A stretch of DNA of 64,000 bases from Rhizaria sp. SCN 62-66 (Eukaryota): contig MEDY01000149.1 of NCBI GenBank assembly GCA_001724265.1, positions 1 to 64,000 of the forward strand, read 5' to 3'. Below the pieces are notes generated by a model. That model made no database searches and was not told where the DNA came from. It saw only the letters and a list, made by a program, of their open reading frames with translations. The position numbers and the translations under genes were made by a program. Every line of letters starts with the position of its first letter. Within the stretch, counting starts at the first letter, position 1. Shown piece after piece: positions 6,342-56,015 of this stretch.

Positions 6342-6380
<39 letters not shown>

Positions 6381-14196: not shown

Positions 14197-14861
14197 GCAA
14201 TGCGCGAAGATATTAGATTGACGAAGCGCCACTTAGAAAAACCGCTCGTACACCTTTTTTATTAGAGTTTGTTGATGACGTACAGAGCGCTTTGGAGTGA
14301 CACTAAAGTGCACATGTGGCGTTTATCTACATTGGATATACTATTATTACGCACACTTAATCAGCTATACATACATATCACTTCTTTTCTTTTACAGCAA
14401 CTGCCTCTTGCCACTCGGCCATCAATCTTTGTAAAGCTGGGTTACGTGAGGATAAATGATAATTACAGGAGAATCAACATCACTTTACTGTTAGGTCACT
14501 TAAGTTTATGCATCAAAATCACATTTTTCAATAACGCTCAGTCGATGTGCTTTCCCTGGACTCCGCCCGTGTGCCCTCAATCGCAATGTCAACCGCTCTC
14601 GAGTGGCGGCATGGCGGGGGGTCGGGGTGTGTCCAGCGGATTCGGTCTGCGAAGGGAGTTATTGGACGCCATTTCTGGGCCATGGATCATATTGTTTAGA
14701 ACTGTACTCTGCACGAAAGACGTTTATTTATGACTAATTATTCGCTATTTATTTTCTGAACTTCTTACGACGCTGGAAAACTGCTCATATTGTGCGAAAC
14801 CCTATCACTCTCCTTTGCCCTCGTCACTCGCCCTAGGCAAGGCCTTCCTACCCGCGCGCCG

Positions 14862-25062: not shown

Positions 25063-27885
25063 ATGCCCTTCCCGAGGTTTTCGGGTTTCGCACTGGGCTA
25101 CACTGTTGATGAAGATGACATTGATCAACTCGAACAACGAGGTAGCGCTGTTGCAGAGGACGCAGAAGACAGTGCACCCGACTTCGGCGACGGACTGTAC
25201 GATGACCCGGTGTTGGACCCGTCCACCGACACCACCTCCCGCGCCTTCCCGGGCTTCATTGCCGACCTCGTCTCCTGCGCCCCCACCCTCGCCGCCGTGA
25301 CCGCGCTGCATCACTTCTTCAGGGCCGACGCGCCCGACCGCCCGTCGGCGTACACCGAGGACGGCAGCGACATTGCCCCCTGGGTCGAGCACCTGCTCCT
25401 CGCGCTCCAGGTGCCCGAGTTCCTCGTCAACTCGCTCGCCTTCACCGGCGACAACCAGCGCACGTTACGCCAGAAGGTCACGCTCGCCGTGTTCATCGAC
25501 CTGATCGGCAACACAGCGCTGCGGAAGCGGCTGGTCGCCGCCGGAGCCCTCGCGGCCGTCGCGCAGCTCATCACCGTGACGTGCGACGTTGTTCTCATGA
25601 AGTCGGCTGCGCGGTTCATCGACTCGGCGCTGTACGAGCGCGCGTACCTCGCCCCAGAGCCCTGTCTGACTGCGCGGCGCGACGCGCTGGTCGCGATGCT
25701 GCCGCACGTGCAACAGGAGCTGCTGCATACGCTGCTCTCCCCGCCGCTCGACCCCGCGCAAGCGGACCGGGCGTACTTCACTTTCACCACTGTCTGCACG
25801 ACGGTCGCGACGCTGTGCAGCCCGACGCTGGAGCCGCCGCGGTACACCGCGCTGGCCGGCTACGTCGCCGTGGCGCGCTGCGTGCTCGCGCACAGGCACT
25901 TGGACGGGGACAAGCGCAGCAAATAGTTGTGCTGGACCGCGCTCGAGCTGCTCATGCGCGTGTTCGTGATCGACTGCAGCGGCAGCGCGGCAGACGCGCG
26001 CGCACTCGCGCTCAGCGAAGCGTTCGAGGCCGTGATGAAGCTCGTTAGTGACCCAGGCAAGGTGAGGTTGAATGCTTACAAGGAGTCTGAGACCCTTCAC
26101 CTCATGTCTGTCCTGCACCGTTGCGCGCTCGCACTGAGCGACGCAGAGATGGATCTCGTGTTCACTTAGCCACGCGTCGACGCGGTCTGCGCCGCCTTGA
26201 ACGCAGCGTTGAACAATAACGAAGTTTCCCCCAAGTTCCTGCAAAAGGGCAGCTGGATTGCCGTGCTTGCCGGTCTTTGCGCGCGCCTGATCGAGGCAGT
26301 GCCGGCTTTCCGCACGTGGTACGCCGCGAGCGCGCTGAGTATCTGTCTGCCGAATAGGCTTGTGCCGCCGGAGAAGGCGTTCGCAGAGCACCACGCAGAC
26401 GTGTGCTTCATCGTGGCTAACGCGGCGCGGCTCTTTGCGGCGCTCATGTCAACGGCAGAGAACGCGTCGCAGGCAGCGCTACGGCTGCTCACCAACGGCG
26501 CTGTTGTGTTTTGCACAAATGCGCTCCGGTTTAGCTCAATGTGGGGCGACGGCTGCGGTCTGTACACGGACAACTGGGTCGGCATCACTGGCAAGTCCCG
26601 GTGTGGCCGGCCCAACAAGAAGGTCCGGACCGGGCTCAGCGCTGACACGGCGGAGCGGCTCGTGCGCGCGCTCAGGCTGATGATCGCGACGCGCGATACT
26701 GCGGCGCCCGGCGCAGAGACAGAGGAGCGCGCACGCGAAGACCTAGTGGAGCGGAACCCCTTTGCCGCTCAGTTTGTTGAGTTACGCGGAATGCAGGCGC
26801 TGGAGCTGTTGCGCTACGCCGATAGCATGGTGCAGGATGACAGCGAGCCTGCGCTGCAGGAGATCGAGCAGCTGCAGTCCCTGCTCGCGCGCATGGCTGT
26901 GATCGCGCCTGCGGCAGTCTCGGCCGACCGCGCTGCGGAGCTTGTGCGGCGGCGCCAGACGGCCGCAGACGTGCGCCCGTTTGTCTCGTCGACCGGCGTT
27001 TCGTGCTCTGAGCGGACTGCGCTCGATGTTTATATTGCGAGATACTTGCAAGCGAGCGGGGTGCCGGAGTTTTCTCTTCGCAGTCGGGAGCCATTTACGT
27101 TCGGTGGGCGCGCCCGGGCGCCTGATGCTCCAACGGACGCGGCGTTGGCTCTGATGCAGGCGCGCGCTCGGGAGGAGATGATTCACTGCGCACACCAGGA
27201 GATGTCTGGCGGCTCCCAGATGCAGGCGGACATGGTGATGATGGCAACGCTTTTCGACCCCCAGAGTCAAAAGCTCGTCGACCATTCATTCGACATTCAG
27301 CTTGACGATGAGAGATTTCCGAGCCACGCAATGCACTTCCGCGCCGCTTCGTTTAACAACGCTCTCGGGCAATTTGTTCACAAGTGCGTGGTTCCGAACA
27401 GTGGCGGCTTAGCAGCGGATCGGCCATTTGTCACCCTGTACACTCGACACACAGCGATCCCTTGTGCCGCCACAGCCGCGCCGCAGCTTGCAACGGACAT
27501 CATCTACGGCGAGTACGACGTGGCCGCCGCTGCGGCGACCGTACACCCTGCCGGCACGGTGCTATTTTACCCGCGCCACGTCACGCCCCCGCGCTACTCC
27601 GACACGCGCGTTGCGGACGTGCGCTCGAACGTTTCCAAGTCGTGCTCCACGATGTGGTGCCTTGTGTTCAAGCCCTGTCCGGCGAGCCTGCTGCCCGGCG
27701 CAGTGCCCGTCGGCCGTGTGGTGGCGAGCGAGGGGAAGAGGCTGTCGGCGGCGGACGATGAGAGCGACGCATTACCCTTCGACGCTGATGTCCTGGCACG
27801 CTTTGCGGCACTGGCCGAAGAGGGGCCGTGCTGCGGCGGGCAAAACCCCAGTATGATCAAGATAGTGCAGTTCAAGAACAAGTGA
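25063..27885 (+). CDS. Alpha-helical (ARM/HEAT-like) hypothetical protein of ~940 aa with two in-frame TAG codons (25924, 26167)
   Basis: ORFs 25063..25926, 25927..26169 and 26197..27885 share one frame and are separated only by TAG. Amphipathic helical segments (RKRLVAAGALAAVAQLI, FVELRGMQALELLRY) resemble ARM repeats. Ends in TGA. Confidence 0.65.
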
Positions 27886-28308
27886 ACGGCTGACCGCACA
27901 CCAAAATGCATCTAAGTGCGCATGAACGAAGATTTTGTCATTGCCATTAGACATAACGACAAATATATAAGTATGATTTTTGAAACGGAGATTGAATCTA
28001 TTACCATAAAACCTCGTAATCACTACTACGTGTGTCTCTAGTTCAAATGGACACATCAATTCTGATCCAAAAACAATATGGTTGCATATTACGAGATGTT
28101 AAATGCGACACGGGACACTCAACGCAAAATCGCATCAGTCAGATCGTGGCCTCCAAGCTCGAGACATTTTAGATTCAGCTCGAGTTCGCACAACTCACCG
28201 CAACGCCACCCTACACACTATCTCAGACTTAACATCATCACACAATTGTCATTCAATTCACATCGATTCATTACAACTTTGCATCATACCATAACACACC
28301 GTATACCT

Positions 28309-30546
28309 TCACTTATCGGCGTCGAGGAACGCCTGAATCACGCGCGCGGAGAACGTGTCGGTGGCGATCTTGTTCTTGCCGGAGTACGACGGCAGGTCCG
28401 CGCCGTCGTCCAACTTGCCGCCGCCTCTGGGCCCCTTGCCGTCGAGCGGCCCCGGTCCCGGCAGCCCGGGCATCGGGAACGCGTCCTCGTCATCGTCGTC
28501 GTCGTTGCCGTTGCCGCCGCCGTGTCCCCCGAACCCGTCAGCGCCTCTGTAGTGCTCCGGCGCGGCCGTGATCTCGACTTCGCCGCGTCCGCCCCTGGCA
28601 CCGCGCCCGCGGTTCCCTGCCGCGCCCAGGGAGAAGGCGCCGTTGGTGGCCGCGGCGCTGCTGATGTTGGCGGCATGTGACAGACTGTGCCGCGGTTGCG
28701 CGAGCGGGGACAGCCGCGCGCGCTCGGGCACCTGCAGCAGCTGCGCGGGCGACATGCGGCCGACGAGCGGGGACAGACGCCCGTTGCCCGCGTTGCGCGA
28801 GACGCGGCCAGTCGCCGTCGCCGAGGGCAGCGAGCCCAGCGCGGGCGACGCGGACGACAGCAACGGACTCGGCGCGGGCGGGTAGCCCATGCCGTACACC
28901 GCGCCCGCGCCCACGCCGCCCGCGGCAGCGCCGGCACCGGCGCCGGGGCCGCCGCCGTACTGCGCAGAGAGCGAGGGCAGGCGCCGCGGGACGCCGGGCA
29001 CGGGCGACGGCGAGGGCGCGAACCTCGTGCTGCCGCCGAGCCCGGCGCTGACCGCTCCCGCGCCCGCGCCGCTGGTGTAGAGCCCGCCGCCGCCGCTGCC
29101 CGTGGCGGCGCTGCCGGGGGACTGCGTGGCGCCGGCCATGGCGACGAGCGGCGCGGCGATCTCGCCGTGGTTGACCGACAGCCCGCGGCGCAGCGACGAG
29201 AGCCCCAGCATGGCGCTCGCGCGCGCGGCCGACGCGGCGACGAACTCGGCGTCAGATGTGCCCGCGCCGTACGCGCCCGTAAAGCCCGGCGTCGGCGAGT
29301 GGCTGGGCCGGTGCGCGGCGGCAACCGCGCGGGAGGTGATGGAACGCGAGGGGATGGCGGAGGAGAAGCCGCCCGCCGGGTCGTCGTCGTCGCCCTGCGT
29401 GTGGCTGCTATGGCGGCCGTAGTTGTCGCCCAGACTGCTGTGCGCGCCCTCGCGCCGCGGCGGGCGCGTCGTAGAGCCGCGCCCCACGACCGCGCCCGCG
29501 CCGCCAGCAGCACCGACACCGACACCGACACCAGCGCCAGCTGCAGCGGCGGCGGCGGCGCTGCCATGTGTGACGCCAATGCGGGAGCCGCGGCCGTGAA
29601 TCTGCGTGCTGGGCGAGTCGCCACTGACGCTCGCGCTGCCCGCGCCGTTAGCGGCGCCATGGTTGGGCGTGTGGCCGCCGAAGACCGCATTCGTGGGCGA
29701 GCTGCGGCCGTAAATCGAGTACAAACCCTGGCTCGGCGTCGGTGCAACACCGCCGTTGTTGTTTGCGAAGTTGTTATTGTTGTTGTAGATTGAGGAAAGG
29801 CCGTCTGGACGACGGGGAGGTTGGCCACTGTTGTTGTACACGTCAACGCCGACAACGGGAGAGTTGGCGCCGGCGCTCGCGAAGGCCGCGGCGGCCGCGA
29901 GCGCGGGGCTGGGACCGGGAACGACACGGTGGCCGCTCGCGGTAACGCTGCTGTTATTAGTGTTGCTGTTGTTGTAGTAGTAGTTGTTGTTGTTGCCACT
30001 CCCGTTGTTGATGTTACTGTTACCACCCAGACGGCCACCCGCGTTTCCCTGGTCACCGTACAGAGGCGGGGCGGGCGCGACAGAGGCGCCGGCGCGGCGC
30101 GGAACAACCTGCCCCATTTCCACGTCGCCGCCGCGCGTCACGACGCCCGGGTGCGCGCGGTCGGCCGCGGCGGCGGCCTCGAAGGCGGCCGGGTCGTCGC
30201 GGGGGCCTGCGGCGAGGACTGCGACATCGTCACGGTAGTTGTACAGGATCTCGTAGCCGTGCGTCTGCGCCAGCGCCTGCACGCGCGGCATAACGTCGCA
30301 CATCTCGCCCGTGGTGTAGGGCGCTTGGCAGAGGAACTGACCGCAGCACCAGAGGTAGAGCACGGCCGTGAAGAGCATCAAGCCAAAGCAAACAGGACCT
30401 ATGACACCGGTGAAGAAGTCATCGAAACCCAACGGGGACTGCGGTGTGTAGGTTAACCAATACCAGGACTCAGCGTGCGAGGAGTGCACGCCGACGCACA
30501 GCAGCACGCACGACAACAGCGCGCGCCGCGCTGTTGATGTGCGCAT
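28309..30546 (-). CDS. Type I single-pass membrane protein with signal peptide, very short ectodomain and long low-complexity cytoplasmic tail (745 aa)
   Basis: Signal-like ALLSCVLLCVGVHSSHA, TM segment GVIGPVCFGLMLFTAVLYLW followed by CCGQFLC, then an Asn/Gly/Ser/Pro-rich tail. Ends in TGA. Confidence 0.75.
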   Translation of the reverse strand: MRTSTARRALLSCVLLCVGVHSSHAESWYWLTYTPQSPLGFDDFFTGVIGPVCFGLMLFTAVLYLWCCGQFLCQAPYTTGEMCDVMPRVQALAQTHGYEILYNYRDDVAVLAAGPRDDPAAFEAAAAADRAHPGVVTRGGDVEMGQVVPRRAGASVAPAPPLYGDQGNAGGRLGGNSNINNGSGNNNNYYYNNSNTNNSSVTASGHRVVPGPSPALAAAAAFASAGANSPVVGVDVYNNSGQPPRRPDGLSSIYNNNNNFANNNGGVAPTPSQGLYSIYGRSSPTNAVFGGHTPNHGAANGAGSASVSGDSPSTQIHGRGSRIGVTHGSAAAAAAAGAGVGVGVGAAGGAGAVVGRGSTTRPPRREGAHSSLGDNYGRHSSHTQGDDDDPAGGFSSAIPSRSITSRAVAAAHRPSHSPTPGFTGAYGAGTSDAEFVAASAARASAMLGLSSLRRGLSVNHGEIAAPLVAMAGATQSPGSAATGSGGGGLYTSGAGAGAVSAGLGGSTRFAPSPSPVPGVPRRLPSLSAQYGGGPGAGAGAAAGGVGAGAVYGMGYPPAPSPLLSSASPALGSLPSATATGRVSRNAGNGRLSPLVGRMSPAQLLQVPERARLSPLAQPRHSLSHAANISSAAATNGAFSLGAAGNRGRGARGGRGEVEITAAPEHYRGADGFGGHGGGNGNDDDDDEDAFPMPGLPGPGPLDGKGPRGGGKLDDGADLPSYSGKNKIATDTFSARVIQAFLDADK

Positions 30547-32113
30547 CAGAGGCCGAGGGCGCAGCTGGAGAGCGTTTGTGTTTGAAACGACTGCCTGTCA
30601 ATCAATTAAGTCACACCCTGGTCTACTTCTATAGGATTAGAATCTGCGGCAAAAATATAATATACAAAGTAGATTTTAGTCTCATGTTATGTTGTTAAAT
30701 TCGGCATCTACGGTGGTTGTGAACCTCGCATGAAGTATTTAGGTCGAGTTTCCCGATGAAGGCAGTGTCACTTGGCCGGACGATCTACGAATGTCTGGAC
30801 AATCACAATCACATGATCACATTGCATCACTGACAAGTAATGATGAGCTCCATGGCGGTCCTTGATCTCACATGAAGCAGTGCCGCTTATATGGCGATAA
30901 AATAATAAACTATGTATCCCAACGTTGTGTTGTAAGCAACTAAGCTCACTAAATGTCATGGTTACACAAAAGTGGATCCGTTTTGCCTCGGTCGCCTCAT
31001 GAACAGCAGCCTGAGGGAAAGTCTCAAACCACGAAATTACCTTGCTAACAGATTTGCACCGTCATTAACGTCGGTAAAAATCCGAAGCACAATAATGGTA
31101 GATTCTTCTAGTTGCGCTCGCGCCGCCGTATATTTGACAGAATTAATACAAAACACGGATGCGCAGGGTTCCCAAATGCATACCTCAGCAGCAATGACAA
31201 TGAAGGTACGACTTGGTACGATAGGGTAAGGCCTTCTGATCGATACCGCTCACAAGCGACCAGTCAAAACACTCACACGAGGGTCCGTTATAAAGGCGTG
31301 CATGTAACCTGAGAACTTTCGTCACTGCCGGATTGGCAAAGACGGCTCCAGTCTCAGTCGTGTTCAAGTGTGACATTATTAATATGAACATCGTAAAATA
31401 ACATTGATAACGTTGCTCTCCTTGCACATTTGTACACATTGCGCAATAATCGTACCTCCTAATGTATCTAATGGAGTATGAGGCTGCCCAACAACGAGAT
31501 AAGCATTGGCAGAGTCGCTCGAAGTCAGCGCTAAGACGACGTCACTTAAGAGCCAACAGATTCCATGGCATAGCAGGGTTGCACAATGTTTGGCAACGAA
31601 ATGAAGAAAGTCGCACAATCTAGCTGTAGTGTGTGAACAATACTCGCCCAGCAATCTTAATAGACAACGTGAATCAGGAGCTACTGTACATTCGAACGAG
31701 TAAGGGAAGCATTGGAGAGCAGCCGTTGCAAAATCGTATGCTTGCAGAGATGCTTTAACAACGCGGCTGCATAGTACAATCAAAAAGCAAAGAGATACGT
31801 ATTTGGGTGTCACGAATCACACGTCAATTGACATGTTGACGATCAGAATTACGTTATCATTGACTTTGAATAACGGTGCAACCACGCTCCTCTTCAAAAC
31901 TCGATTCTCAAGGCTTTGAATCGTTGCTCTTTGACGATAGCGTCCACGATAATCTGATCGTCAGAAGCAATTAATTTTGACTATGATAATCAATCATCTG
32001 TATTCCGTGCGAAAACTGTATTATATCTCTTGAAGCCATCTCATCACCGCTACACCAACAACTTTCTCACACTCATCAGTTTTTCTGTTTCTTGCCTCGT
32101 CCTCCAGCCTCCA

Positions 32114-35100
32114 ATGCTGCCTCACAAGGCAGACTCTTCAGGGACACAGCCAACCCCGCGCCTAGCAGGCCCACCCCGCCCTTCACACGTGCCATCATAT
32201 CCGTTGCACCCGACTGACGCCGCGCTTCCTCCCGCCCGTGTCCCCGCGCCGCTTCAGCCCAGCGACATCACTTCGCACGCCTTCGTTGCGTCCCAGCAGG
32301 ATGCTGCCACCGGGGTCGGACTGACGCCCGCGCCGTCGGGTTTCCGCCGCCCCGCATCCGCGCGTGTGATTCACTCGTCCGCTGGCGATACATACCTCTA
32401 CGCGGCCAATGCGGCTGCCTTGTCTCAGGTCGCCAACGGCTCGCAACCGGAATCTGACGACAACCCACGGCGCTCGTTCAAACCGCTGCGTCCACCGGTT
32501 GCCGCAACAGACCGAAGCAACGCCTTCGCAACAGATGGCAGCCGCGTGCGCAAGTTCTTTGCTACGCGCCCCGCAACAGCGCGTTCGACAGTGCCTGCAG
32601 CGAAGGCGAGTGCTCCTCCTGCTACTCCGTCCAACGACTCGAATGACACAGAAGAGTGTGTATGCGGCCGGCCGGAGTGTGCCACGTGCAGTCCTCCTGC
32701 GCCCGCGCTAGTGCGGCCGACCCTGGGCCCGTTTCTGGCCGCGCACGGTCTGCTCACGGTCCCCCGCGAGTACCACGTATTCGGACCACGCTTCGCGGCC
32801 ACTACGGCCGCCACTGCTGCTGCCACTGCCGCTACTGCTGCTGCCGCAACTGCTGCTGCCGCAACTGCTGCTGCTGTTACTGCAGAGGTCCACAGCTTGA
32901 AGGATGACGTCGCTGTCTCGAGCGTGGACAAGCAAAACGAGGATGGCGATGTTGACATTGCCAGCGTCGGTGCGACAGCAACTGCGCCCACGCTACCAAA
33001 TCACGAAAACGAGAGTGAAACTGAACACATTGACCCTGTGTTGGGTGGAATGTGCTTTCTTGAGTATCTTGGAGACTGGGCGCTTGCCACTCTCGACGCT
33101 TCACTACTGCGGCAATCCCGCTCACAGTCTGACACATCGTCGCATGCCGACAGTTCTGCCGCGCTGCGTGGCTTGCGCGCAGTGCTGTCTGCAGCAGCCG
33201 CTGCGTTTTTGGGGCCCGCACCCACTGCGACACCGGGCGAGGACAACGACGTCGATCCCGGTACGCTGACGGCGACTTCTAAGACTGCACAGGAAGATGG
33301 ATGCGGTGTCTTTACAGGGAACCTCACTGCGGCTGCAGTTGCAATCACTGACGTGACCGCGCGGCTTGTGCTGCTTTGCGCCAATGACTCTGCCGAAAGT
33401 TCCGACAAGACAGAGAAAGAACAACTCACCACGTTTGGCGAATGGCTTTGCACCTCTGCGATGGCGAACTTTGCGACTCCAGTCTCAATGACCCGCGATT
33501 GCAGCGGGGGCGACAGCGCTGCGCGCGCGGTATCCGCTGTGTGCGCTACGGGCGCAGCGTGGGCTGGTGCACTTGCGCCTGCGCTCGCGACTGCTCTTGA
33601 CGTTACTGGTTGGCGTGCGCAGACCGCGAGCGAGTCACAATCGCATCGCAATTGGGCTGTGCTGCCGCTTTCACCATTTGTTGGGGCCGCACTCAAGCAG
33701 GAGTTGGCGTGCGGCACTGCAACACCAGAACACGACGCTGTTGATGCCTCCGCTGCTGGCACGGCGGACGCGGAGCCACGTTTGGCTCTGGCCCGGCTGT
33801 TGCCCGTGCTGCGCCTGTTGACCGACGTCGCCAGCGCGCCGCCCCGGCTCTGGGCTGGACTGGCCGCTGCTGTCGCAACTGCGTTGTCCACTGCCGTGCC
33901 CGCCGCAGTCGCTGCCGCTGTTTCTGCCGACTTTGACAGCGCCTCCGTGCGGGTTTTGAGAGATGCTGTTGCGATCGTGAATGCGCTCGCGGTGGCAGCA
34001 ACACGGGCCCCCGGCGCTAGCCTGCAATGGGCGTTGCTCCTTGCGCTCATAACTGCGCGCCCCCTTAGTCATGTTGTCAGTGCACACAAAGCGCACACCA
34101 ACGTAGCGGCTGACGCGCTTGCTGCTGTCGCGACGGCAGCGACAGCCGCCGCCGTGGGCTTCCCCGCACTGCCCACGCATGCGCTACTGCCGCGCGCCGT
34201 AACGGGGCTACTTCTAAGTCACGCTGTCGCACTTACTCTTGCCGCTGCACCTGCCACTTCGCGTGCCGTCGGACATCTGCCACCGCTCGTTGCGGCGTTG
34301 CTGCCCACAGTCAGTCTCGCGCTGACGACGGGCGACCCCGCGGCAGCCTGCGCCGGCGCCGCGCCCGCTGCGGCCGCCGCCGCCACTGCGACCGCGCGCG
34401 CCGCGTCAGTTGCCGCTGCGCTTGTTGGTCGGCCCTGGCGCTCGTGGCGAGCTGCGCTTGCAGCAGCCTTTACCTCCGGTGAAAACTCGGCCGCTGTCAG
34501 TCCTGGCGACGCGATACGCAGTGAAGCGGAGGCAGCGATGATGTTGGTGGCCACGTTGCTGCCGCCTGAGGCCCTTGACTGGCTTCTTGCGATTGGCGAC
34601 GGCTGCGCATGCTGCGATGGCAATGGCGTTGCACACAATTGGACGCGCGACGGTGTACTCGCCACAAGTACTTCTGCGGCAGTTTGCGACTGCTATTGGG
34701 ATGAAGGTGGTGTTACAAATGCGGTGCAAAGCCCTGCGCTGCCGTTTCTGCCGTTTTCGCCGCTGGAGGCGTCGGACCGCGAATGGCTGCACAATGCACT
34801 GGCCGCTTCTGCGGGTCCCGTGGCCGCGCCGTCGCTGACAGCTGCCGCGTCAACTGAGGCACCCGAGGCCGCAGCTGTGCATACTGCTGTAGCAGTCGAG
34901 CTCGTCACCGCACTGCGCGCCGCCGCAACAACGGCAGCAGCGCGTGCCCAGCGGCGGTGCGCGTGCGAGCTGTGGGCGGCTCTGCGGGGTGGAGCTGTGA
35001 CGGCACTCGCGGGGAAGGCGCCTCAGCTCGACTATGCAGTGCAGTATGCGGCGGGGCTGATTGAAACTGGGAGTAACGGGATGAGTGTCGTTGATATGGA

Positions 35101-41100: not shown

Positions 41101-44100
41101 TCTACATCATGCAGCTTACGTGCGCAACAAAGATGATCGATCAGGACTTGCGACGCAAATGCTTTTGTCTCTTTACCAGCATGCGATTGGACGTAAAGGT
41201 ACGAATTAAATGTCTCTATTAATGATGCTGCAACTAATGTGCACCATGTGTTTGTGTTTACAATGGCTTGTGTGCTTACAGTTTCCTTGTAATTCGTATG
41301 TTTCTTTTAGCTGTCACTGACATTTACCGCGGAGAGACGTCACCACTGTTGAGCTTGGCGGCACCACCTTCGGCGGGCTCGGTCTCTCCTTGGTCTCAGT
41401 CGCCACTTGACTCTGTCATTGCGCTGTACGTCCAACAACGCGCCCATGCGCGCGCGTTGCGCGGAGCGGGGGTCACGGTTACCAAGCGCCATCGTCTTGG
41501 ATCAGTCTCGGTTGGCATCGCTACTGCGGGTGGCGGCCTCAGCGCCGACTCAGACTCCGACCCTGACTTGGATGCCGGTGCAGATTCAGGCGTGCAGACG
41601 CGGAAAACGATTCCTTTACGCGATCTTCTGTTGCAGCTTGGCGTGTACCATCGTTTTAAGTCTTTTGGCAGCTCAAAAAATGCTTCTGGGCAAATGCCAG
41701 AGTGCCGCCGCCGTCGCTGGCTCATCACCCTGGTTGGACTTAGCGATGGCGCTGGCGCCAGTAACAGCGATGGGGTAGCCGCCAGCGGCGCCGGCGCAGC
41801 GGCAAGCTCGGGTGTGGGTACAGGGCCTGGAATGGCGACTGGAGCAGACGGTGCCGTCGCTGCTGTTGCGGCGGCTGCGCGTGCCGGCGCTGGTGCAATT
41901 GTGCCTACGGTTGCTGTCTACAGTGCGACTGCTGCGGCGTCAGTGTCCGTTGCTGCCGCTGCTGCGGCTGCCCCTGTCCGTCCTCATGTGGCAGGTGACC
42001 TTGCTTCTGTGCGTAAAACATTGCCCAGAATCTGCACTGTTTGTGCGATTCTTGCGCGTGATGGCGTTCAAGCGGACTCGACGGCAGACGTTGCCGCCGC
42101 CGCTGCTGGAACGCACCTTACGATTGTGGACAGCAACGGCCAGACGGCGCATGTGTCTGACGACCCGTATTCTGAGTTTGCCTTCACGCGTGATTTGATA
42201 TTTCTACCACTGCATCGTCGCTTCATTGCGCGTGCGCTGCTTTCTAGCTATGTTGCCCCTGAGTTTACCGGTCCCTCGTCAGTATTGGCCACCGTTGCGC
42301 GTCTGCAATCTGCGGGCCGCTCACCCCATTGCACGCGATGTGGAGGGCCAACTGTGACCCCGCCTCAGTCTCCGCGCACAGGTGGCGGCGCCACTGATGT
42401 CGGTGTGCGCCTTTGGGCTCTGCACCCGCGTCTTGTTGACGCCACTTGTGGCTGGATTGGCGACCGCGCCTCCGCACCGTCCTCCGCCGCCGCCAACGAT
42501 GACGCCCGCACGCGTGCGCATGCCCTTGGCGAGCTGGTGCGCGCGCGCGAGCGCTGGCAGCGGCGCGTGCGTGGCATTGCGACTGCACATGATGAGGCTG
42601 TTGACCGTGCGATTGCGCTGGAACGCGCAGCGGCAGAACGCATGGTTGCAGCGGAAGAGCGATGCAAGCTTGTAGCTGAAGCCGCCGTTATAGCGGCCAA
42701 AGATAGTGTCATTGCTGCTACACAAGTACTTGCATCCGTGCCGGCGGCATCAAGTGTCAAAAGAGGTGGGAGTTGGAGCGATGCATTGGGTGCTCGCCCT
42801 GGAGCTCATCGTCCCCACACCGCGCATGTCACGCGTCGCAATCCGTCTGTTTATGTTACCGCATCAACAGCCCCAAGCCTTGCCGCGGAAGTTGAGGATG
42901 TTTCGGGGAATGGCGAGTCAGTGCTTGTTGCTGTTGCCGGGCGTCGTCTCGGTAGCGCAATGGCACGGATTGACCTTTCTGAAAGCTATGGTTTGGGCGA
43001 CAGTAGTGTTGACACTGCTCCCAATGGGACGTTCCAGCGCAAGGACGAAGCTTCGTCAACTCTCACTCGGGAAACAACTGAGCCCACGTTGCTAAATAAT
43101 GCCGCTTCTGATGCCTCCAATACTGTGTCAGCCTCACGATTCTCGCGTCCGCGCACAGCGTACGCGCTTGGTTCATACGCTGCACCACTTAAACAGTCTG
43201 CACCTGCTCCTACCAAGCAAAGCAATGCTGACTCTGCCGCGACTATCACGGAACGCAAGCCTGTTACAACAACTGTTGCTGGAACAGTCGCCGCCCGCGC
43301 ACGCGCAGACGCCCGCGTAGCAGTCGCTGCGCGTGCGACGCTGTCGGCATACACAGCCTTGCTCTTGCCGCTTCCACAAGCGGGGACATCATTCATGCGT
43401 CGCCGTCACGATTAGCTGGCACCTCCAGACCCAGACGTTGCGTTGCTGTTAACCGCGACTGGCACGGGCGAGAGCGTTGAAGAAGGCGGAGTTGCGAGCA
43501 CGAACGAAGTAGGTCGCGTGGTGGTGCGTACGACTAGGTCTCGGCCAGTGCATCCGTCGTGGGGGCCGCCGCGGCCTTTGCCGCCGTCTTTCCTACCCTC
43601 TCAGGCGCAGCGCGCGTATGCTGCTGCTGCAGCCCACGCCCGCGCTGAAGACGCGCTACGTGGATACATGCATACCGAGCAAACGCGCCACGCACTAATG
43701 GACGCACGCTACCTGCGCTCTCGCAAAGGCTTAAATGAAGCGGTGGCTAAGGCCAACCGCGAGGCTGCTGAGGGTGCTGCTCTGAGGCCTCCTAGCGCAA
43801 GCACGACTGCTTCGAGCACGATTACTAGCACCGAAGGCAACGGTGCAGGACTGGGGCGTAAGCATCGGCCGCGCGGATACACTGGGCCTATCGCGGCCGC
43901 TGATGCCGCAGGCCGCGCGGCGCGGTCAGCTGTTGAACAGGCGCTTGCTCTCATGACACCAGCTGCTCCTGCAACTCAGACTTCGGCTCCAACACGCAAA
44001 GGGTATGTGGCCACTGCGGCTGGACAAGCTGCGGCAACTGCCACTGCTATTGAATCTCCAAACGCTCACTGCAGCGCTGATGCCACGCAAGATGGAGCAG

Positions 44101-44552
44101 CGCCTGACCAAACACAGCCGCTCATCCTCAATGCGCAACGCGCTTTTGACCCAACAGATGCTCCTACGTTGCTTCAACAGCGCCCGCGCACAGCCTTACG
44201 TGCCGGCACGGCCGCCAGCACTGCCAAGCGCCCGCAGACGGCAAGATTTTCCTCCTTGCCCATGCGGTCTGCATTGCTCTCAACGGCAAGCAGCACCACG
44301 GACAAAGACGTGGCCGGCATAAGTGCTGTCGTCGCCATGGATCTTCCTCTGCGGCAGTGTGGGCTGGCATCATGCGGCGCACTTCCTACGGCTCACGCAC
44401 ATTCTGCAGAGGCTGGTTCTGGCGTTAGCTGTGGACGTTGTGGCGAGTGGTACTGTAGCGAGACACACAGGGCAGCCGCGAAGGCAGCCCACCACGAGCG
44501 GGAGTGCCTCGTGCCATCTAAGGTCGCAGATTGGCATGCGCACTGGAACTAA
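32114..44552 (+). CDS. Giant (~4100 aa) Ala-rich protein with C-terminal MYND-type zinc finger; exons 32114-41198 and 41311-44552; two in-frame TAG (35795, 43413)
   Basis: ORFs 32030 and 35798 share one frame and are split only by TAG. An intron joins them in phase to ORF 41268, which continues through TAG into ORF 43443. The C-terminus CGLASC...CGRCGEWYCSETHRAAAKAAHHEREC is MYND-like. Ends in TAA. Confidence 0.65.
41199..41310 (+). other. Spliceosomal intron (112 nt)
   Basis: AAAG|GTACGA donor, AT-rich body, TTTCTTTTAG acceptor; a phase-1 join gives in-frame K-A-V-T-D. Confidence 0.8.
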
Positions 44553-44979
44553 ACTTTAAACTAACTATGAATCTAAGCACTACATTTACCTAGAATGTTT
44601 TTACTTTACGTTTGATTACTCTCGATACATTTTTCAGTCGACTTTTGCCACTTAGACCAAATATTATTACGCAACATGAATATATGCACAAATGGATCAA
44701 CAAAAATGTTACGTCAATCATGCTAACCAACCCCAAATTATGGACTTCACAAACACAACTGGCACACAGATTCAGACCTTGCGCGCACAAGTATCAGAGC
44801 GCAAGGACTATCCTCGAGGTGAACCGGTACTTCTAAATGCCCAGACGGGCCTGCTCTGGCGCGCGCCAGCCCTGTCCGACAAAATAGTATGAAAGGGTAA
44901 CAACTATGTAAAATGTATAAAGCAAAAGCATGTCAAACATGCTCAAATCTAACGTATAAATTAATCAAATATCGGTGCA

Positions 44980-47900
44980 TTAATAATGGAAACGGTTCGC
45001 AGAGCTCGCAAGTGAAGCTGTGCGCAGTGCCGCACCGCGCGCCAGTGAGGCGCGAAGCCATAAAACTACGGCCACAAAGGCAATGCTGTTGCGCAGCCAT
45101 GGCGAGCGGCGCACGCGGGAGTACACCAGATACGCGTACACAGCCGGCACCGGCAGCAAGCGCACAAAGGCGGGCAGCGTCAGCCGCACTGTCCGCGCAC
45201 GCACATCCCCTGTCACAGTTAGCTCGCCAGGACGCGCACCGTCGCTACCGCGGCGCTCCAGCATGCGCTGGTGGCGCGCTTCAGCCGCAGCACTGTTCGC
45301 ACTGTTTCTACGCTCGCGCTCGCGTTCTTCGTCATCGAGATCGGACTCGAAGTCCGAGTCCGTGCCGGCGTCGGAGACAGCAGCACCGTCAGCGTCGTCA
45401 TCTTGGTCGCTCTCAGGCAGCTGCTGCAGCTGCTATTGATGCAGCTGCTGATGCTGCTGCACAGTGTTGGGCGCGATGGCGGGCAAGCGTGTCACGTTGG
45501 CTGCCGCGCTCTCAGCACGCTCGATGGCCTGCTGCTCGCGCTCGCGCCGGCGCTCGCGCAAAGCGCGGCGGCGGCGCGCACGCACGAGTCGCGCAACGGC
45601 CCGCTCAGCATCTTCGAGCCCCCAGTCGGGCTCTTCGGCGGCGGCCGCAGCGACGGCGGCGCGCTCGGCGTCCTCCAGCCGCGCCAGAGCGCCGAACAGA
45701 GCGCGCTGCTCCACGCGCGCCGCCTCGCTCAGCGGCGCTGCGACGACAACGGCGCTGCTCGATGCGCCGTCGCCCGCGCCCGTGCCGGCCGCGACAGCCG
45801 ACGCGGCGGCCGCGGTGGCAGCGGCCTCGGCGGCCGCGGTCGCGGCCTCGACCTCGGCGCGCTTGGCGTTAAGCGCGGCGCGCGCGGCCAGCACGGTTTG
45901 CGCCTTGCGCCAGTCGTCCACAACGGGCCCCACGGCCGCGGCAGTGACCGTGAGCACGACTGCCAGAGCGCTCGCGCGCGCCGCGGCGGACACAGCGGCG
46001 AACACGGCGCGGCGGGCGGCGGACCGCGCGGCAGGCGAGAGTACAAGGCGCAGCGCGAAGAGCGTGGCGGCCGTCGCGCCCGCGGTCTGCACGGCGGCCG
46101 CGGCCACTGGGGCCGGCGGCAGCGCGGTGTAAGCGCGGCGTATCGGCGCCGGGATCAGTGCAGGGGCGCGCGCGCGGACCCAGGCGCCGACGCTGTCGGT
46201 GACGAGCGCGGTGCCGTACTTGGTCGCGGCCCACAGAAAGGGCGCCGTTGGGTCAAAAACAGGTCCGCGGCGGCACGGCGCAGAGAGAATGCGCTGCACG
46301 TGCTTGCGGAAGGGCGTCACAAACGGTCCGGCCGCTGCGGCAGCAGCCGCAGCGGTAGTGGGCGTCGTCGGGGCCACAGGCGTCTGAAACTGCGCCGATA
46401 CAGGCATGTGCGCGCGCGAGACGGAGAGCGCAGACAGCACAGTGTCGCCGCTGAGGGGCGGCGCCTGAGTCGCGCGGGGACGCAGTGAGCGCAGCTGAGG
46501 CTGTGATGCAGACGGACGCGGATGTGCACCGTCTTCGCTCTCGCTCTCGCTGCCGCTCCAGCTGCCAAAACCACGGAGGCCGCCGCTGACACGCACAGTG
46601 CCACACGAAGCCTGAAGACCGGGCGCAAGACCGGACGCAGGGGTCTGCAGACTGGCAGCCTGGCCCAAAGCCTCGAACGCGGCGGCCACCACCGCAGCCT
46701 CGGTCTCGGCGACAGACGTCGGCGCAATAGGCAGCGGCGGTGCCGCAACATGCGTCGCGAGAGCATTATCCTTGTTGTTCGTCGCAGCTCCACCGTCATC
46801 GTCACTATCGTCGTCGTTGTCATCGTCGTCGCTGCAGCCGAGCCATGTTGTGACAAGCGTCTCTACCTCGGTCGCTGCGGCCCGCTCGCGCTGCTGCTGC
46901 TGCAGCTGCTGCCGCGCCAGCTGTTGCCAACGCGGGACGCGCGACGCCGCTCTCCAGCGGGCGTCCTCGGCCTCATCCTCATCCTCGCCCATTCCAGGCA
47001 GCACGGCGGCGGCGGAGACGGGGGCAGCGTTAGCAGCCGCGGTTGTGGGCGGCCCAGCGGGCGCCATTGTTGCTGCGGCAGCGGCGGCGAGCGCGCGGCT
47101 ATCTTCGCCAACTGCGGGCGTGCGGCCGCCGATGCGGAAGTCGAGCCGCCCCATCGCGCGCGGCGCGCGGCTCTGATGCACATGCTCAGCTGCGGTCGCC
47201 GTCTGCGCGCCGGTGCCGGTGCAGGTGCCAGTGCCAGGGCTCTCGCCCTCGTCTTCCTCGATCACCACGCCCAAGCGCGCAGCACCCCCGGGCGTGGCAG
47301 CGGCCGAAGCGGCGGCAGCGCTGGCGTCGTCGCTGTCACTGAGGTCGTCTCCGAGCAAACGACGCAGCGGGCGTGGCAGCGCATCGGCGACGCGGTTGGT
47401 CAGCACGCGCTGTGCCGACGCGGGCAGCCGGTTTAGAACCACCTTGCGGTCATCGGGCGTCATGTTGAACGCGATGAGCGACACGACATCTGAGAATACG
47501 CCGCCGGACCACTGTGTCTCGACCAAGTCGAGCAGCGAACGGTCGAGCAAAGTGGCGCGCATGCGCTCGACCTTGGCCAGTGCGCTCGCGGGCAGCAACG
47601 ACATCACGCCGGCCGCCGCACCGCCGCCGCGCACGGTGTCGGCCACCAACGCCGTCGCGAACAGCACCGCCGCGCGCGCCAACAGTGCGCACGCAACGCC
47701 CACGGCGGCCAGCAGGTACAGCGTCTGCGGCGACAGCGCGATGACCAGTCCGGACAGCACGAGCAGCAGCGCCGCGGCCGCCAGCGCGCGCGGAGACGCT
47801 GCGAGCGCAAGGAGCGTCGGCAGCACGGCGCGCGCGTGGCGGCGCAGGAAGCGCAGCACCGCGCGGCGCGCTGAACGGAGGCGCGCGCGCAGGGCGTGCG

Positions 47901-50900
47901 CCAGCGGCGAGTGCGCGTAGACCTCAGCACACGCGGCAGCGCAGTCGCGGGCGTGTGCGCGCGTGCTAGTCAGCGCGGTGGCGGCCGACGCGCGCGCGAG
48001 CGCTGCGAGCGCGGCGGCCGCAGCGGCCGGGGAGACGAGCACAAGCGCGATGACGTCGGCGATCGAGCCCGAGAGCGTCATCGCCAGCGCCTCAGCGTCG
48101 CGAGCGAGTGCGGCGCCGCTGTCGGCAGTTTCGTCGGTGTCAATGTCAGTCTCGTCGCCTGAGTCGGACGGCGCGTCCGTACCGGCGCCCAGTGTCACTT
48201 CAGGCGCATACGCGGACGCAGACACATGCATCGTCTCTGGCCCAGGCCCAGCCACAGAAGCAGAAGCAGCAGGCGCAGAGGTGCGGATGAGAGCGGTGGT
48301 GTGTGACGCGCCCATCGCGGGCTCAGACAGCGTAGACGCAAGCTGCACAGCGGCCGGCGCGGCGGCAGTGACGACGCCGCGGGCCGGCGCTGAGAGCGGG
48401 GGGGTGCGCGCGCCGGTGCGGCGGGGCTGGCCTGCAGCGCCGTGGGGCCGCCGCAGCCGCAAGCCGGCGCTGCTCACGGTCTCCGTGGCGGCCGCGGCGT
48501 CGGCGGCTGCGGCGGCAGCGTCATCGGGCTCCTCCCGGTCAGAGTCGAGCGCGTCAAGCGCATCGTTGTGGCCCGACATGCCCTGCGCACGGTCCGCGCG
48601 CGAGGACGACGTCGACAGCGCAAGCCGCTCGCTTTCACACCCGCTGTCGTACGTGAAGCCCGCAGCAGCGGCCGTGGCAGCGCCAGCGGCTGTGGCCGAC
48701 ACGACCACGTCGCCGTGCACAGGCGGTGAGGCTACGGCTCTGCGCTGGCCTGCGGCCACGGCGCTGTCAAGCGAAACGACCGAAGACGCGGGCGAGGCAA
48801 GCAAAGGCGCGCGGCCCGGTGCAGAGACGGCCACGACACCACTCGAGAGCACGCTGCCATGCATCGCGAACGACGCAGACGCGGACGCAGACTCGAAATC
48901 GACATCAGCGTCTGTGCCAGCGAATGACAGATTGGCGAAGCGCGCGTCCTCGTCGTCATCGTCGTCGTCGCCGTTGTCGCCGCTGTGGTCGTCATGGTGG
49001 TCACTGGGCACGTCGGCGCTGTCCGCGAGCGAAGCCGGGCGCGTGAGCGGCGACCGCGGTGGCTGCGGGCCTCCCCACGCCGCCGAGGGGGCAGCGCCGC
49101 CGCTGTGCGCGCCGCCACTCTGTGCGCCGCCACTGTGCAGCGCAGCGGTGCCGTCCGTCTCGACGTGGCCACTGCTGCCGGTCTGCCCGCTGTTGGTGCT
49201 GTTGCTGCTGGAGCTGCTGAGGAACAACCCATTCGCGGCGGACGACGCCTCGCTGCTCGCGGGGCCAGCTGTAGCGGCGCAGGGCAGCGCGCCAGAGCCC
49301 GAACCCGAGCTGGCGCCGCCGCTGGCGGAGGTCACCAGCGCGCTGTCGCTGCCCAGAAGACTGCTAGGCGCGAAAAGCGTCCGGTGCGCTCGTGGCAACG
49401 GCGAGTCGTGTCCACTGGCCTCGACTCGAGCCTCGGCTCTAGACTGCGAGTCGCGTGCAGGCGTCTGCGTGCGCGCCTCAGCCAGCGGTCTCTCTTGCGA
49501 GCGCATGTATATGTGCGATGGCGATGTGGCCGCAGATGCAGACGCGGGCAGCGCAGAGGCGGCAGCTGCAGCGTTGTATGGCGTAGCACCGTAGACTGAG
49601 GCAGCACGCGTGGGCGCGGCGTGCAATGACGGGCTCGTATACGCCATCGCGGAGCCCAGTACCACACGCTGCGGACCAGTCAGCTGTGAGAGTGGGTCTG
49701 AATCGGTATCACCGCTGTCGACGTCAAACACGGCTCCAGCGGCCCGGCCGGCCGCGGAGGCCGCGAGCCGGGCCCCGGCGGTCGCGGCGGTGGTCTGCGC
49801 GCGCGGGGGCGTGTTGGGCGCCGACGCAGAGGCGGGCACGGCAGCGGCGACGGCAGCAGCGGCAGCAGCAGCAGCAGGCGATACAGTATCAGTGGGCGCG
49901 GAGACGGCTCCTGTGACAGCGACAGAGGGCTGGGACAGCGGAAGCGCGCTCTTGGCCTCGTCGGCGTCAGGTTTCGCAGCAGCAGTAATGTTGGCGTTTG
50001 CAGTGTCGGGGCTGAGCGGTGAAGCAACAGCGGCGGCCACAGCGGCGGCAATCACCGCGGCCGCGGCGGCGGTGGCCCGGGCATCGCTGTTGTCGTCGTC
50101 GCCGTCGTCGCCGACGCCGCCTGGCACGACGTGGGCGGCTGTGGATTCGTGTCTCGTCTTCACGCCAGTCCACAGCTTTGCGCGTCCAGCCTTAGCATTT
50201 GCGACGACGGTGGCGAACTGCGTGCTGGCCTCAACAGCAGTCTCATTAGCAGCAGCAACCTTGGCCTCAACAGCCGTAGCAGCGACGGCCATAGCAGCAC
50301 CAGCCTTGGCAGCAGCGGCCATGACAGCAGCGGCCTTGACAGCAGCGGCCTTGACAGCAGCGGCAGCGCGGCGGTCGTCTTTGCGTGCGCGGTGCGACTG
50401 CAACGGTGCATCTTCCGACGCCCAGTCTGAGAAGAACACGCATCCGTCGTCGCCGTCGCTCTCCGCATCACGCGCACTCGCGCTCACGGCGTTGCCATCG
50501 CGGTCATGGCCGCTCTCGCCGTCGCTGTCTCCGTCGCTGCGACCGGTGCCGGCGGCGTTGAAGTCGACGTCTGAGTCGGAGCCTGAGCTTGAACTCGAGC
50601 TCGAATCGAATAGCCTGTTGTTGCTACTGTTGCCGTTGCCGCTGCCGTTGCCGCGGCCGCGGCCGTGGCCGTCGCGCACTGCCGCGCGTGGTGGAGTCGA
50701 GATCTGGCCAGTCGCAGCGCCAACAATGGAACGGGCGGGGGACAAAGTCAAAGCAACGGCCGCAGCCGTCGGCGCTGCTGTTGCAGACGCAGACACCGCC
50801 AGCGAAGCCAGCGAAGGCGACGACGACGACGACGATGATGACGAGGATGAAGAAGGCGTCAGCGGCGCATAGTGCCGGCGCGCCTGCAGTGCAGGCCCCG

Positions 50901-51465
50901 CTGCGCCCTCCGCCGCCGCAGCAGCAGCGCCAAGAGACGCCGCGGAGCTTGCGGCGAGCAAACCGGCCACAGTGCCTGCAATCGAAGCATACGCCACTGG
51001 CGGCGACGGCGGCGACTGCGAGTGCGCGCTGAAGCGCCCCGACTGGTAGCTCGGCGTCTGCGCAGCGGCCGCGGCGACGGCGGCGGCGGCGGCCGCAGCG
51101 GCAGCGGATGCGTTGGCGGAGGAGGCGCTGGGTGGAGTGGCGTGTGCGTGCGCATGTGCGTGTGCGTGTGTAGCGGAGCGAGGGCTGGGGGTGCTTGCGC
51201 CTGGGCTGGAGCCTGAGGTGGAGTCAGAGCTGGTGCTTGTGCACGTGCCCGTGGTCGCGGCCAGCGTGGGCGAGCCTGGCGCTGCGGGCGTCGAGGGAGA
51301 CGAACGCGCGCTCATTGCACCGGCGGCGGAGACGGCGAGAGGGGGCGAGCCTGGAACGGCGCGCTTCAGGGTTACCTGGGCAGGCGAAATCAGGTGCTGA
51401 ACGACGCCTGTGGGGTGGTAAATGTTACCGGAGTAGGCGTGCGTGTCGCCGCGATTGCCGTCCAT
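44980..51465 (-). CDS. Large (~2160 aa) low-complexity membrane protein with a central hydrophobic segment and C-terminal TM tail; one in-frame TAG at 45435-45433
   Basis: ORF 45433..51465 ends at TAG, but the frame stays open for 56 codons (QLQQLPESDQDDDADG...) into ORF 44980..45264, which ends in TAA at the edge of AT-rich spacer DNA. Confidence 0.7.
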
Positions 51466-52129
51466 GAGGCAGACGGGAAAGCGCGCGCGCAGACGCCGAA
51501 ACTGTATGTTTAAGGGAAAGTGGGGTCTGGTAGGTCTACAAGCAACTAGGGTAGGTTTTGGTCCAAATGACAGGTCTGTGAGAAAAATCGCGACAGAAAA
51601 TGGTAGCTATAACTTATATTAAGTTGCACATTAGTGTAATTTCCGATAGGACCCGCGTTGTGAGGAGACACAGCGAGCAGAAGGGCGTCGCTCCAACGTA
51701 GTTCTTTGCCGTTGGTGTTGAGTAGGTTTCACAAGCGATACAGAGGCATAGCAGAGTCGTGCAAGTGTGTGGCATTTAGAAATATATATTCATGTGAATA
51801 TGTTATCGAGGAGCTCGTCGCTTTGCTAACTGAACGATCATTTGGTTTCGTCAAGAACAACAGAATCAAGTCCACGCCGACCCCCCATGCCTGTGGCAAG
51901 ACGGGCAGCAAGCAGTCAGATTGCGAGCAGAATGATAAATCAAGTAAAAAGTCGCCCAATATGGACACGGATTCAGCCGAACTAAAGATTATTATTTATT
52001 TCATAGACGTCACCAAATAAAAAAGCGCGTCGCAATTATCTTAACACATACATATGTACCAAACCCCCAACCACAGCAAGCAACATCAACAATTACAGTC
52101 AACAGTACCCCACCAGAGACGAGTCACGC

Positions 52130-55100: not shown

Positions 55101-55201
55101 GCGGCCTCGCGCTCCGCGGCCTTCTTGGCCTTGACGTCGCCGAGGATGTCGTCGAGGAAATCGTCCTCGTCGTTCTTCTTCTTACCCTTGTTCTTAGACA
55201 T
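52130..55201 (-). CDS. eIF5B: Eukaryotic translation initiation factor 5B (IF2-family GTPase)
   Basis: GTPase motifs [30 protein letters not shown] and [22 protein letters not shown] and YGRHFD; charged N-terminal extension. Intronless, TAA end. Confidence 0.97.
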
Positions 55202-56015
55202 GGCTCGAACTGTCAGTCGGTAACGGAGCGAGAACACGCGATCCGAGTGGGACGGGGGTCCAACAGGGCAGAGAGAATACGCGCAGAACGAAAGAGCGAG
55301 AGAGTGATGCGGGAGTGGGGAAGAGGTGCGACAAGCGCGGACGGGTCAAAGGGAAGAATAAGAGGGGTAGATGAGAAATAAGAACATAAGAAAGATAGGC
55401 CTATGTTGCAGCTTGTGGGATATGAAGCCATCATGTGCTGGACGGATATACAGCGGTGCTTAGGGTATGAATGCGATCCGGATCGACATGAAAAGACTTG
55501 TGGTGCGCATGGAATTCGACGATACACAGGGGGCGAGCGCGGCCCTCTTGAGTCATATGAATAGCGTAGGAATACAGCTAACTGCGCAACCCTACCGAGA
55601 TGAGGCGCGCAGCTTAACCCAGGGGCGGCCACGGGCAAATCGGGCAGATGTTTCACTCTCCTTCGATCGATGCGCCGCACACCACTGACTGTGAGCAGCG
55701 CGCCTCTGTGGCGCCAAGCCGAGCCAGACTGAGCAAAGTCGGCAACGGATGGGACAGGCCAGAAACCGCTGTTATTTACACCTCGATTTGGCGGATAATC
55801 CATCATCAAAGTTTGGTGATATGGTTGTCAACGACAAATGAAAACGTTTACTATAAGATCATTATATTTTAGTTGCGCTCGTTGACATATGTGTTGCGCT
55901 GTGTATCCACAAAATTCCGCTCTGACAGCCCGTCTACACTGTCGACTCGACTGGCCCTCACACACCCCGCCTCGGCCTTTCCCCTTGTCCCTGCATCTCT
56001 AGAGCCGGGTTCACA

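Follow-up and report, generated by a model that had tools for sequence, protein, structure and literature searches.

We analysed a 64,000-nucleotide (nt) stretch of DNA, positions 1 to 64,000 of contig MEDY01000149.1 in the assembly of Rhizaria sp. SCN 62-66 (GCA_001724265.1), hereafter the window, in which five TAG codons interrupt four long genes. In the window and in a gene family that it shares with a metagenome, TAG occurs within conserved coding sequence, and genes avoid it at their ends, where TAA and TGA terminate. We give a probability of about 0.78 to a stop-to-sense reassignment of UAG alone, a known but rare kind of change, in a new eukaryotic lineage. A preliminary description made from the sequence had proposed that UAG is sense while UAA and UGA remain stops, and this proposal is supported by homologues that run colinearly through the TAGs, by an excess of TAG within the family, by a TAG inside a ubiquitin domain and by contigs from independent studies. 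UAG would then no longer be a terminator in the window's organism, and apparently also not in a wider uncultured lineage that shares the family of one of the interrupted genes, here called the P0001 family. A tRNA that reads UAG, either with a CUA anticodon or as an efficient near-cognate, would outcompete the release factor eRF1, which may have lost or weakened its recognition of UAG.

In-frame TAG codons in four long genes

All five TAGs lie where the preliminary description had placed them, and reading through them links long same-frame pieces of open reading frames (ORFs) in four genes. The P0001 gene (25063-27885, + strand) consists of pieces of 287, 81 and 572 codons, 940 in total, ends in TGA and contains two in-frame TAGs. 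The first, at 25924-25926, is codon 288 and falls in a variable column of the family; the second, at 26167-26169, is codon 369 and lies in the motif VFT-TAG-PR, directly after Thr368, which is at least 90% conserved. An alanine-rich orphan gene of 3083 codons (31958-41209, +; first ATG at 32114) ends in TAA and has its TAG at 35795-35797, between pieces of 1279 and 1804 codons. The orphan gene P0003 (41238-44552, +; first ATG at 41298) is 1104 codons long, also ends in TAA, and is divided by a TAG at 43413-43415 into pieces of 725 and 379 codons. On the minus strand, a low-complexity orphan gene of 2212 codons (44980-51618; first ATG at 51465-51463, terminal TAA at 44982-44980) has pieces of 2058 and 151 codons on the two sides of a TAG at 45435-45433, which stands within a Gln/Leu repeat (CAG-CAG-CTG-CAT-CAA, then TAG-CAG-CTG-CAG-CAG). 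A sixth TAG at 51609-51607 (-) was not counted, being in an AT-rich leader upstream of the first Met of this gene.

The preliminary description had also claimed that the frame and the coding composition continue unbroken across each TAG, with no AT-rich spacer. The composition held at all five sites, where the guanine plus cytosine (GC) content, in 60-nt bins, is 0.52-0.80 over 300 nt on either side. The frame held at four: in a codon-usage scan trained on the window's long ORFs (12,623 training codons), it is unchanged across 25924, 26167, 35795 and 45435, and the signal is weak on either side of 43413. The ORF that lies 3′ of TAG 43413 encodes a C-terminal MYND zinc finger (PF01753; 44415-44507, +) scoring 23.5 bits for a cut-off of 22.7, with an E-value of 6e-5 on a 50-residue piece and of 0.0076 on a 378-residue piece. 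Since the finger exceeds the Pfam cut-off, the stretch after this TAG is protein-coding.

If the TAGs were true stops, the in-frame ORFs downstream of them would be separate genes or would be re-initiated. Close spacing does occur here, with ~90 nt between the TAA at 41209 and the ATG at 41298; the ORF after TAG 43413 has no Met for ~85 codons and then one; and the MYND finger alone does not link its ORF to the part upstream. However, of the 14 terminal TAA or TGA stops examined, 13 are followed within one or two 60-nt bins by a drop in GC to 0.25-0.48 (the exception is TGA 58063, where GC remains 0.52-0.57), whereas GC drops after none of the five TAGs. Additionally, all five downstream ORFs share the frame of the ORF upstream, for which chance would give (1/3)^5, or ~0.004. 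Because of the shared frames and the absence of a GC drop, separate genes are unlikely at the three orphan genes; at the P0001 gene they are refuted by homology (see below), and as a general explanation of the TAGs we hold them to be extremely improbable.

Stop-codon usage at gene ends is consistent with a UAG that has left the set of terminators. The 16 ORF ends in the window are TAA in nine cases, TGA in seven and TAG in none; the preliminary count of eight TAA, five TGA and no TAG among 13 ends is revised by this in its numbers and stands in its absence of TAG. Reading through TAA lengthens ORFs of at least 600 codons by no more than 61 codons, and the ORF mergers produced by reading through TGA fall in frames that the scan marks as non-coding. 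We found no in-frame TAA or TGA in the window's coding frames, as the preliminary description had said in denying comparable interruptions, but that denial passed over apparent frame changes at 4307-14196 and near 57.5 kb. Two other codes were rejected. A code with UAR = Gln (both UAA and UAG, of the NCBI table 6 type) is incompatible with the nine TAA ends, each of which has a GC drop, and with coding frames that are without TAA. An ambiguous stop/sense code was rejected on the 16 window ORFs, none of which ends in TAG, and on the tails of 36 loci of the P0001 family, two of which (L023 and L031) possibly end in TAG. In codes of the latter kind, reportedly those of Condylostoma, karyorelicts and, for UAA, Blastocrithidia, a single codon specifies an amino acid within genes and terminates translation at their ends.

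The P0001 family and candidate residues for UAG

A search with P0001 gave 84 matches in 1.84 billion representative proteins. Three of them are fragments of the window's own gene that break off exactly at the TAGs. All nine family clusters looked up come from metagenomes, from which alone the family is known. The 14 homologues that we aligned with P0001 run colinearly across both TAGs, each TAG facing exactly one residue; opposite codon 369 they carry E, P, A, Q or G. Since full-length homologues are colinear through both TAGs, the three pieces of 25063-27885 are one gene, whose product would need TAG to be translated, and separate genes are refuted there, the homologues being single proteins across both sites. 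The same alignment excludes an intron at codon 369, where one residue stands opposite the TAG between conserved flanks and an intron would delete conserved sequence. A search with P0001 residues 200-480 matched its own piece only and so gave no close orthologue from which to read the residue at either TAG. Neither the viral contig nor the genome contig collection yielded a match to the family, and an exact 40-mer spanning TAG 26167 was not found in the genome contig collection. The C-terminal motifs of the family, for example GAVPVGRV and YPxGTVLxYPR, are strongly conserved.

At least 39 distinct loci of the family are present in a single metagenome, suggesting a large, expanded family. These 39 loci (L001-L039) are on contigs of 1-10 kb with a GC content of 0.48-0.65 and probably derive from several organisms. 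With all three stops masked, their three forward frames were aligned to a hidden Markov model (HMM) of the family made from 48 database proteins. Inside the aligned regions of 38 loci and the window there are 31 TAGs, two of them in the window, together with five TGAs and four TAAs. Most of the TAA and TGA codons stand at the extreme end of an alignment, and only three are interior (in L011, L030 and L033), compared with 29 TAGs in the 38 loci. The share of TAG expected among random nonsense mutations with the codon usage of the family is ~47%; the probability of at least 31 TAGs in 40 stops is 3e-4 at a share of 0.5, and it becomes ~4e-7 if only the three interior TAA and TGA codons are counted.

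The stop codons of the family genes are TGA or TAA and lie a few codons past the end of homology. The first stop in the C-terminal tail of the 38 loci is TGA in 21, TAA in eight and TAG in seven, with a contig edge in the other two, and in five of the seven TAG cases conserved sequence, inspected by eye, continues beyond the TAG. In L039, a TAG lies within a ubiquitin domain that is colinear with ubiquitin over 75 residues, and it stands opposite Ala28. The usual C-terminus of the family (…FRP) runs in-frame into this ubiquitin domain (L039, 1-540), as a fusion or as a very tightly packed neighbour gene. Ten TAG-bearing ORFs flanking the loci yielded one Pfam match (NUDIX), away from the TAG, and no added conserved sites. 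An AT-richer ORF beside the family gene of L010 (2753-3277) has a TAG immediately ahead of Gln-Gln and a Cys-Gly motif that calls to mind a cysteine protease, and it belongs to no Pfam family.

To ask which amino acid UAG specifies, we scored HMM match-state emissions at TAG sites in a Codetta-like manner, using the 19 sites with a posterior of at least 0.8. The best scores are those of Lys (9.7 bits), Gln (8.0), Glu (7.2) and Asn (3.7), and Tyr (-13.3), Leu (-19.4) and Trp (-23.7) score far lower. When locus L035, which has three TAGs, is left out, Gln scores 9.4, Lys 9.0 and Glu 8.6. As a control, 200 subsamples of 19 sites were drawn for each of 59 ordinary codons, and the true residue was returned in 0.45-1.0 of the draws, at least 0.94 for most codons; since most codons are recovered in this way, the scoring has power. 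We conclude that the decoded residue would be polar, with Gln, Lys and Glu fitting the profile data equally well, and that Leu, Trp and Tyr are unlikely on these scores. TAG 45435 is in register with a CAG of the Gln/Leu repeat, which is a hint of Gln, and prior knowledge together with this one repeat in the window makes Gln a first guess. The residues adjoining the TAGs carry no information and reflect AT-richer surroundings. Two TAGs are opposite a conserved Leu, at codon 288 of L013 and codon 79 of L035.

These scores also bear on changes to the mRNA, either adenosine-to-inosine (A-to-I) editing, which would turn UAG into UGG and hence Trp, or small in-frame introns at the TAGs. Nothing in favour of either was found beyond the suggestion of editing in the preliminary description, and no listed RNA contig bridges a TAG, which leaves room for both. 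That suggestion is disfavoured by Trp lying ~33 bits below the best residues at the 19 well-aligned sites and by TAG columns that are hydrophilic and variable. For introns, the alignment at codon 369 is joined by the RNA run described below, with no joint among those listed. We find editing or introns scarcely credible as an account of the TAGs.

A variant of the reassignment deserves mention, although we think it unlikely: UAG could mean Lys in a deep-branching uncultured lineage of eukaryotes that is common in wastewater reactors, or it could have no fixed meaning, with near-cognate Lys, Gln and Glu tRNAs filling in. We know of no nuclear code described in which UAG means Lys. If the residue were Lys, or if decoding were promiscuous, this would be a new code variant, and a codon that is stably unassigned yet translated would likewise be new.

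Independent sequence data and the weight of the evidence

Eleven public runs are listed for 35700-45600; in four of them at least half of the words sampled from this region are present, and one of those four may be the source. Runs X6-X9, with small shares of the words, were not taken to add any habitat beyond those listed. For positions 25800-45600 we compared contigs from four runs, which belong to three other studies (2017 to 2025). With no differences, TAG 25924 is bridged by a contig of run X9 (25805-26108), TAG 35795 by one of run X3 (35507-37370) and TAG 43413 by contigs of both X3 (43377-45012) and X4 (42764-44290); TAG 26167 is bridged unchanged by a contig of X4 (26038-27119). For TAG 45435, no bridging contig is among those listed and no variant is reported there, although all 30 bins of runs X3 and X4 have depth. 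Seven variant places are listed in these 19.8 kb, none of them at a TAG. Because contigs from independent studies carry four of the five TAGs unchanged, assembly or read error is excluded at those four sites. Near-identical DNA of 35700-45600 was observed in bioreactor, wastewater and activated-sludge runs of several studies from 2015 to 2025, and since only seven differences are listed in 19.8 kb across the three other studies, the organism is recurrent and little-varying in such reactors.

RNA contigs from a polyA library of an activated-sludge study (run X5) lie on either side of TAGs 35795 and 43413, one of them at 35916-36365, downstream of TAG 35795. No joint for this run is among the best-supported ones listed. 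Stretches without RNA cover were taken as evidence for nothing.

Several observations weigh against the reassignment of UAG. Translation through TAG is something we infer from homology; none of the listed X5 contigs spans a TAG, and no tRNA genes were found in the window or in the 39 family loci. TAG is also rare, with five occurrences per ~16,000 codons of ten long window genes, and it is ~50 times rarer than CAG (261 per 12,623 training codons), which is low for an old reassignment in a genome rich in GC at third codon positions (GC3-rich). In three of the four TAG genes no homologue was detected, P0002 and P0004 having been searched by Pfam only: Pfam has no family spanning the TAG in 31958-41209, 41238-44552 or 44980-51618, the sole database match of P0003 is its own piece cut at the TAG (P0125, 705 amino acids), and P0126 had no usable match in Protein Atlas. 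The 39 loci are tied to the window's organism only by family homology at 27-50% identity. Per site, the TAG score is about half that of ordinary CAG, GAG and AAG codons, and the residues that the closest paralogues place opposite TAG are mixed (K, L, S, A, E, Q, R and Y). Pseudogenes may be present among the family copies, given the interior TAA or TGA in L011, L030 and L033 and the frame changes in L024, L028, L032 and L033. In L023 and L031 a TAG lies 2-6 codons before a TGA and could be the real stop. Within its 135 codons, L035 (1-405) contains three TAGs, which fall on a nearly invariant Lys that most members encode by AAG, on a conserved Leu and on a Lys/Arg column. This copy is decaying or else speaks for TAG = Lys, and TAGs at columns conserved for different residues (K and L) resemble decay. 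Finally, random nonsense mutation would yield TAG in five cases of five with p ~0.03-0.1, from the window alone and its codon usage.

That last value belongs to an account in which the TAGs arose as ordinary nonsense mutations, the genes being in decay or dispensable, and TAG prevails only as the most accessible stop under GC3-rich codon usage. The preliminary description had argued that decay should also have changed CGA to TGA and CAA to TAA. This argument is weaker than claimed, as 53-63% of random nonsense mutations in the window's genes would be TAG, and because p is 0.03-0.1 nonsense decay is not rejectable from the window alone. The orphan status of three of the four TAG genes, the apparent frame changes elsewhere in the window, the interior stops and frame changes of some family loci and the L035 TAGs, one base from AAG and TTG at conserved K and L columns, also suit decay. 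However, decay does not predict the 31 TAGs against nine other stops in the family, with the probabilities given above, and some of these TAGs are opposite codons two or three bases away (GCA, CGC, AGT). The ~7,200 codons of the four window TAG genes contain no frame shifts or other stops, no variant at a TAG is listed in the runs of the three other studies, and no window gene ends in TAG. On this evidence we judge nonsense decay to be very improbable.

Because TAG is rare in the window, the main rival to reassignment is a leaky UAG with a dual role. In this case, eRF1 would still recognise UAG, and near-cognate tRNAs of the Gln, Lys, Tyr and Glu types would read through it usefully, with no single residue inserted; undemanding positions would tolerate TAG, which genes would avoid as their regular terminator. 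The heterogeneous residues opposite TAG fit such a role, as do the codons of the best scorers K, Q and E, which are one first-base change from UAG. So do the low information of the TAG columns (0.31 bits, compared with 0.75 on average), the rarity of TAG itself and the possible TAG ends of L023 and L031. However, none of the 16 window genes ends in TAG, and partial readthrough would cost most of the product of a gene with two TAGs (25063-27885) or three (L035). Programmed, context-dependent readthrough has a special 3′ context after the stop. The preliminary description had offered it as an alternative, which loses its footing here: the base after 43 in-frame TAGs is C in 15, T in 13, G in nine and A in six, a pyrimidine share of 0.65 (0.47-0.64 for other NNG codons, N being any base). 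This distribution does not differ from the one seen after other NNG codons, so that no readthrough-type context is apparent. We consider a dual role improbable, and the rarity of TAG also fits a reassignment that is young or still costly.

The organism, its neighbouring genes and published codes

The GC content of the window is 50-80% per 2-kb bin, and its long, apparently intron-poor ORFs carry eukaryotic domains. The gene for the translation factor eIF5B (52130-55345, -; Pfam GTP_EFTU, IF-2 and EF-Tu domains D2 and D4) ends in TAA, has no internal stop and was used as a conserved control gene and organism marker. Its best matches, with identities of 78% and 63%, are metagenome proteins. Among proteins that bear an organism label, the closest reach only 43-48% identity and come from a contaminant contig in a chytrid assembly, Heterolobosea sp. 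BB2 and Flamella aegyptia; the third-best score belongs to the contig flagged as contamination in the chytrid genome assembly. GC content, eukaryotic domains and eIF5B all agree with the GC-rich protist of the preliminary description. Rfam families had zero matches in the window.

Domain searches identified further proteins in the window. These include a giant gene of the calpain/FAP42 (androglobin-like) type from 4307 (+), a giant PH-domain gene at 14760-23570, Rit1, an OB-fold SSB-like protein and a PDZ-like protein. The first of these lies in a continuous stretch of 80% GC (4307-14196, +) without AT-rich spacers, in which the coding frame switches at three places (+2 to +1 to +0 to +1), near 10800-10850, 11900-11950 and 12400-12500, with a protein-like translation in every frame. 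Small introns, true frame shifts or indel errors within GC-rich repeats could explain the switches, and if the stretch is a single gene it would encode an androglobin-like calpain/FAP42 protein of ~3,300 residues. The TGA at 11167 probably does not mark where a gene ends. A further possible intron or frame shift is seen at 57100-58065 (+), where coding potential prefers frame +0 up to ~57550 and frame +1 thereafter, a switch in or beside the ORF 57109-58065, which has a weak PDZ match.

Nuclear codes that split UAG from UAA are rare, and those found in print are from Iotanema, exLh and a few ciliates (PMC5304391, PMC11687900). Iotanema spirale (Fornicata) uses UAG for Gln and keeps UAA and UGA as stops (Panek et al. 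2017, PMC5304391). Here, too, UAG alone would be sense with UAA kept as a terminator, and Gln is among the three residues favoured by the profile and is hinted at by the repeat at 45435; however, the organism is unrelated, GC-rich and uncultured, and TAG is very rare in the window. In Rhizaria sp. exLh (Sainouroidea) UAG means Leu (PMC5304391). That case resembles ours in being a UAG-only reassignment with UAA and UGA as stops, seen in sequence data from an uncultured protist, and differs in the residue, since Leu scores -19.4 bits here against +9.7 for the best residue at the 19 sites, though two TAGs do oppose conserved Leu.

Phyllopharyngean ciliates have undergone repeated UAG-only reassignments (to Leu and to Gln) with UAA as stop, mined from metagenomes (2024, PMC11687900). 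The present change shares with them a UAG-only shift seen in metagenome data and the retention of UAA as a stop, but the window's contig has 50-80% GC, the family loci lack telomere-like ends, TGA is also a common stop, and the protein database places the window's eIF5B protein on a contig of up to 118,568 bases. Ciliate nanochromosomes were rejected as a source on GC content and on locus ends without telomere-like sequence. In Oligohymenophorea sp. PL0344, the amino acids specified by UAA and by UAG differ (McGowan et al. 2023, PMC10553269). The meanings of UAA and UAG are decoupled there as they would be here, and in our data TAG is compatible with Lys and Glu, among other residues; unlike in PL0344, where both codons are sense, TAA ends nine of the 16 window ORFs. 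The two residues used by PL0344 are said to be Lys and Glu.

A full-text literature search, supplements not covered, found no published UAG-only code for a GC-rich protist of wastewater or activated sludge. If the reassignment is true, it adds a lineage distinct from Iotanema, exLh and the ciliates, one with GC-rich DNA and long ORFs on a large contig that turns up repeatedly in the reactor and wastewater metagenomes of several studies. Standard gene callers cut such proteins at TAG, and public collections hold the window's genes as fragments (P0125, P0126, P0127, P0147); because of these cuts, the proteomes and family counts of the lineage would be wrong until its code is set. Since TAG is still rare here, the organism could represent an early stage in the capture of a stop codon.

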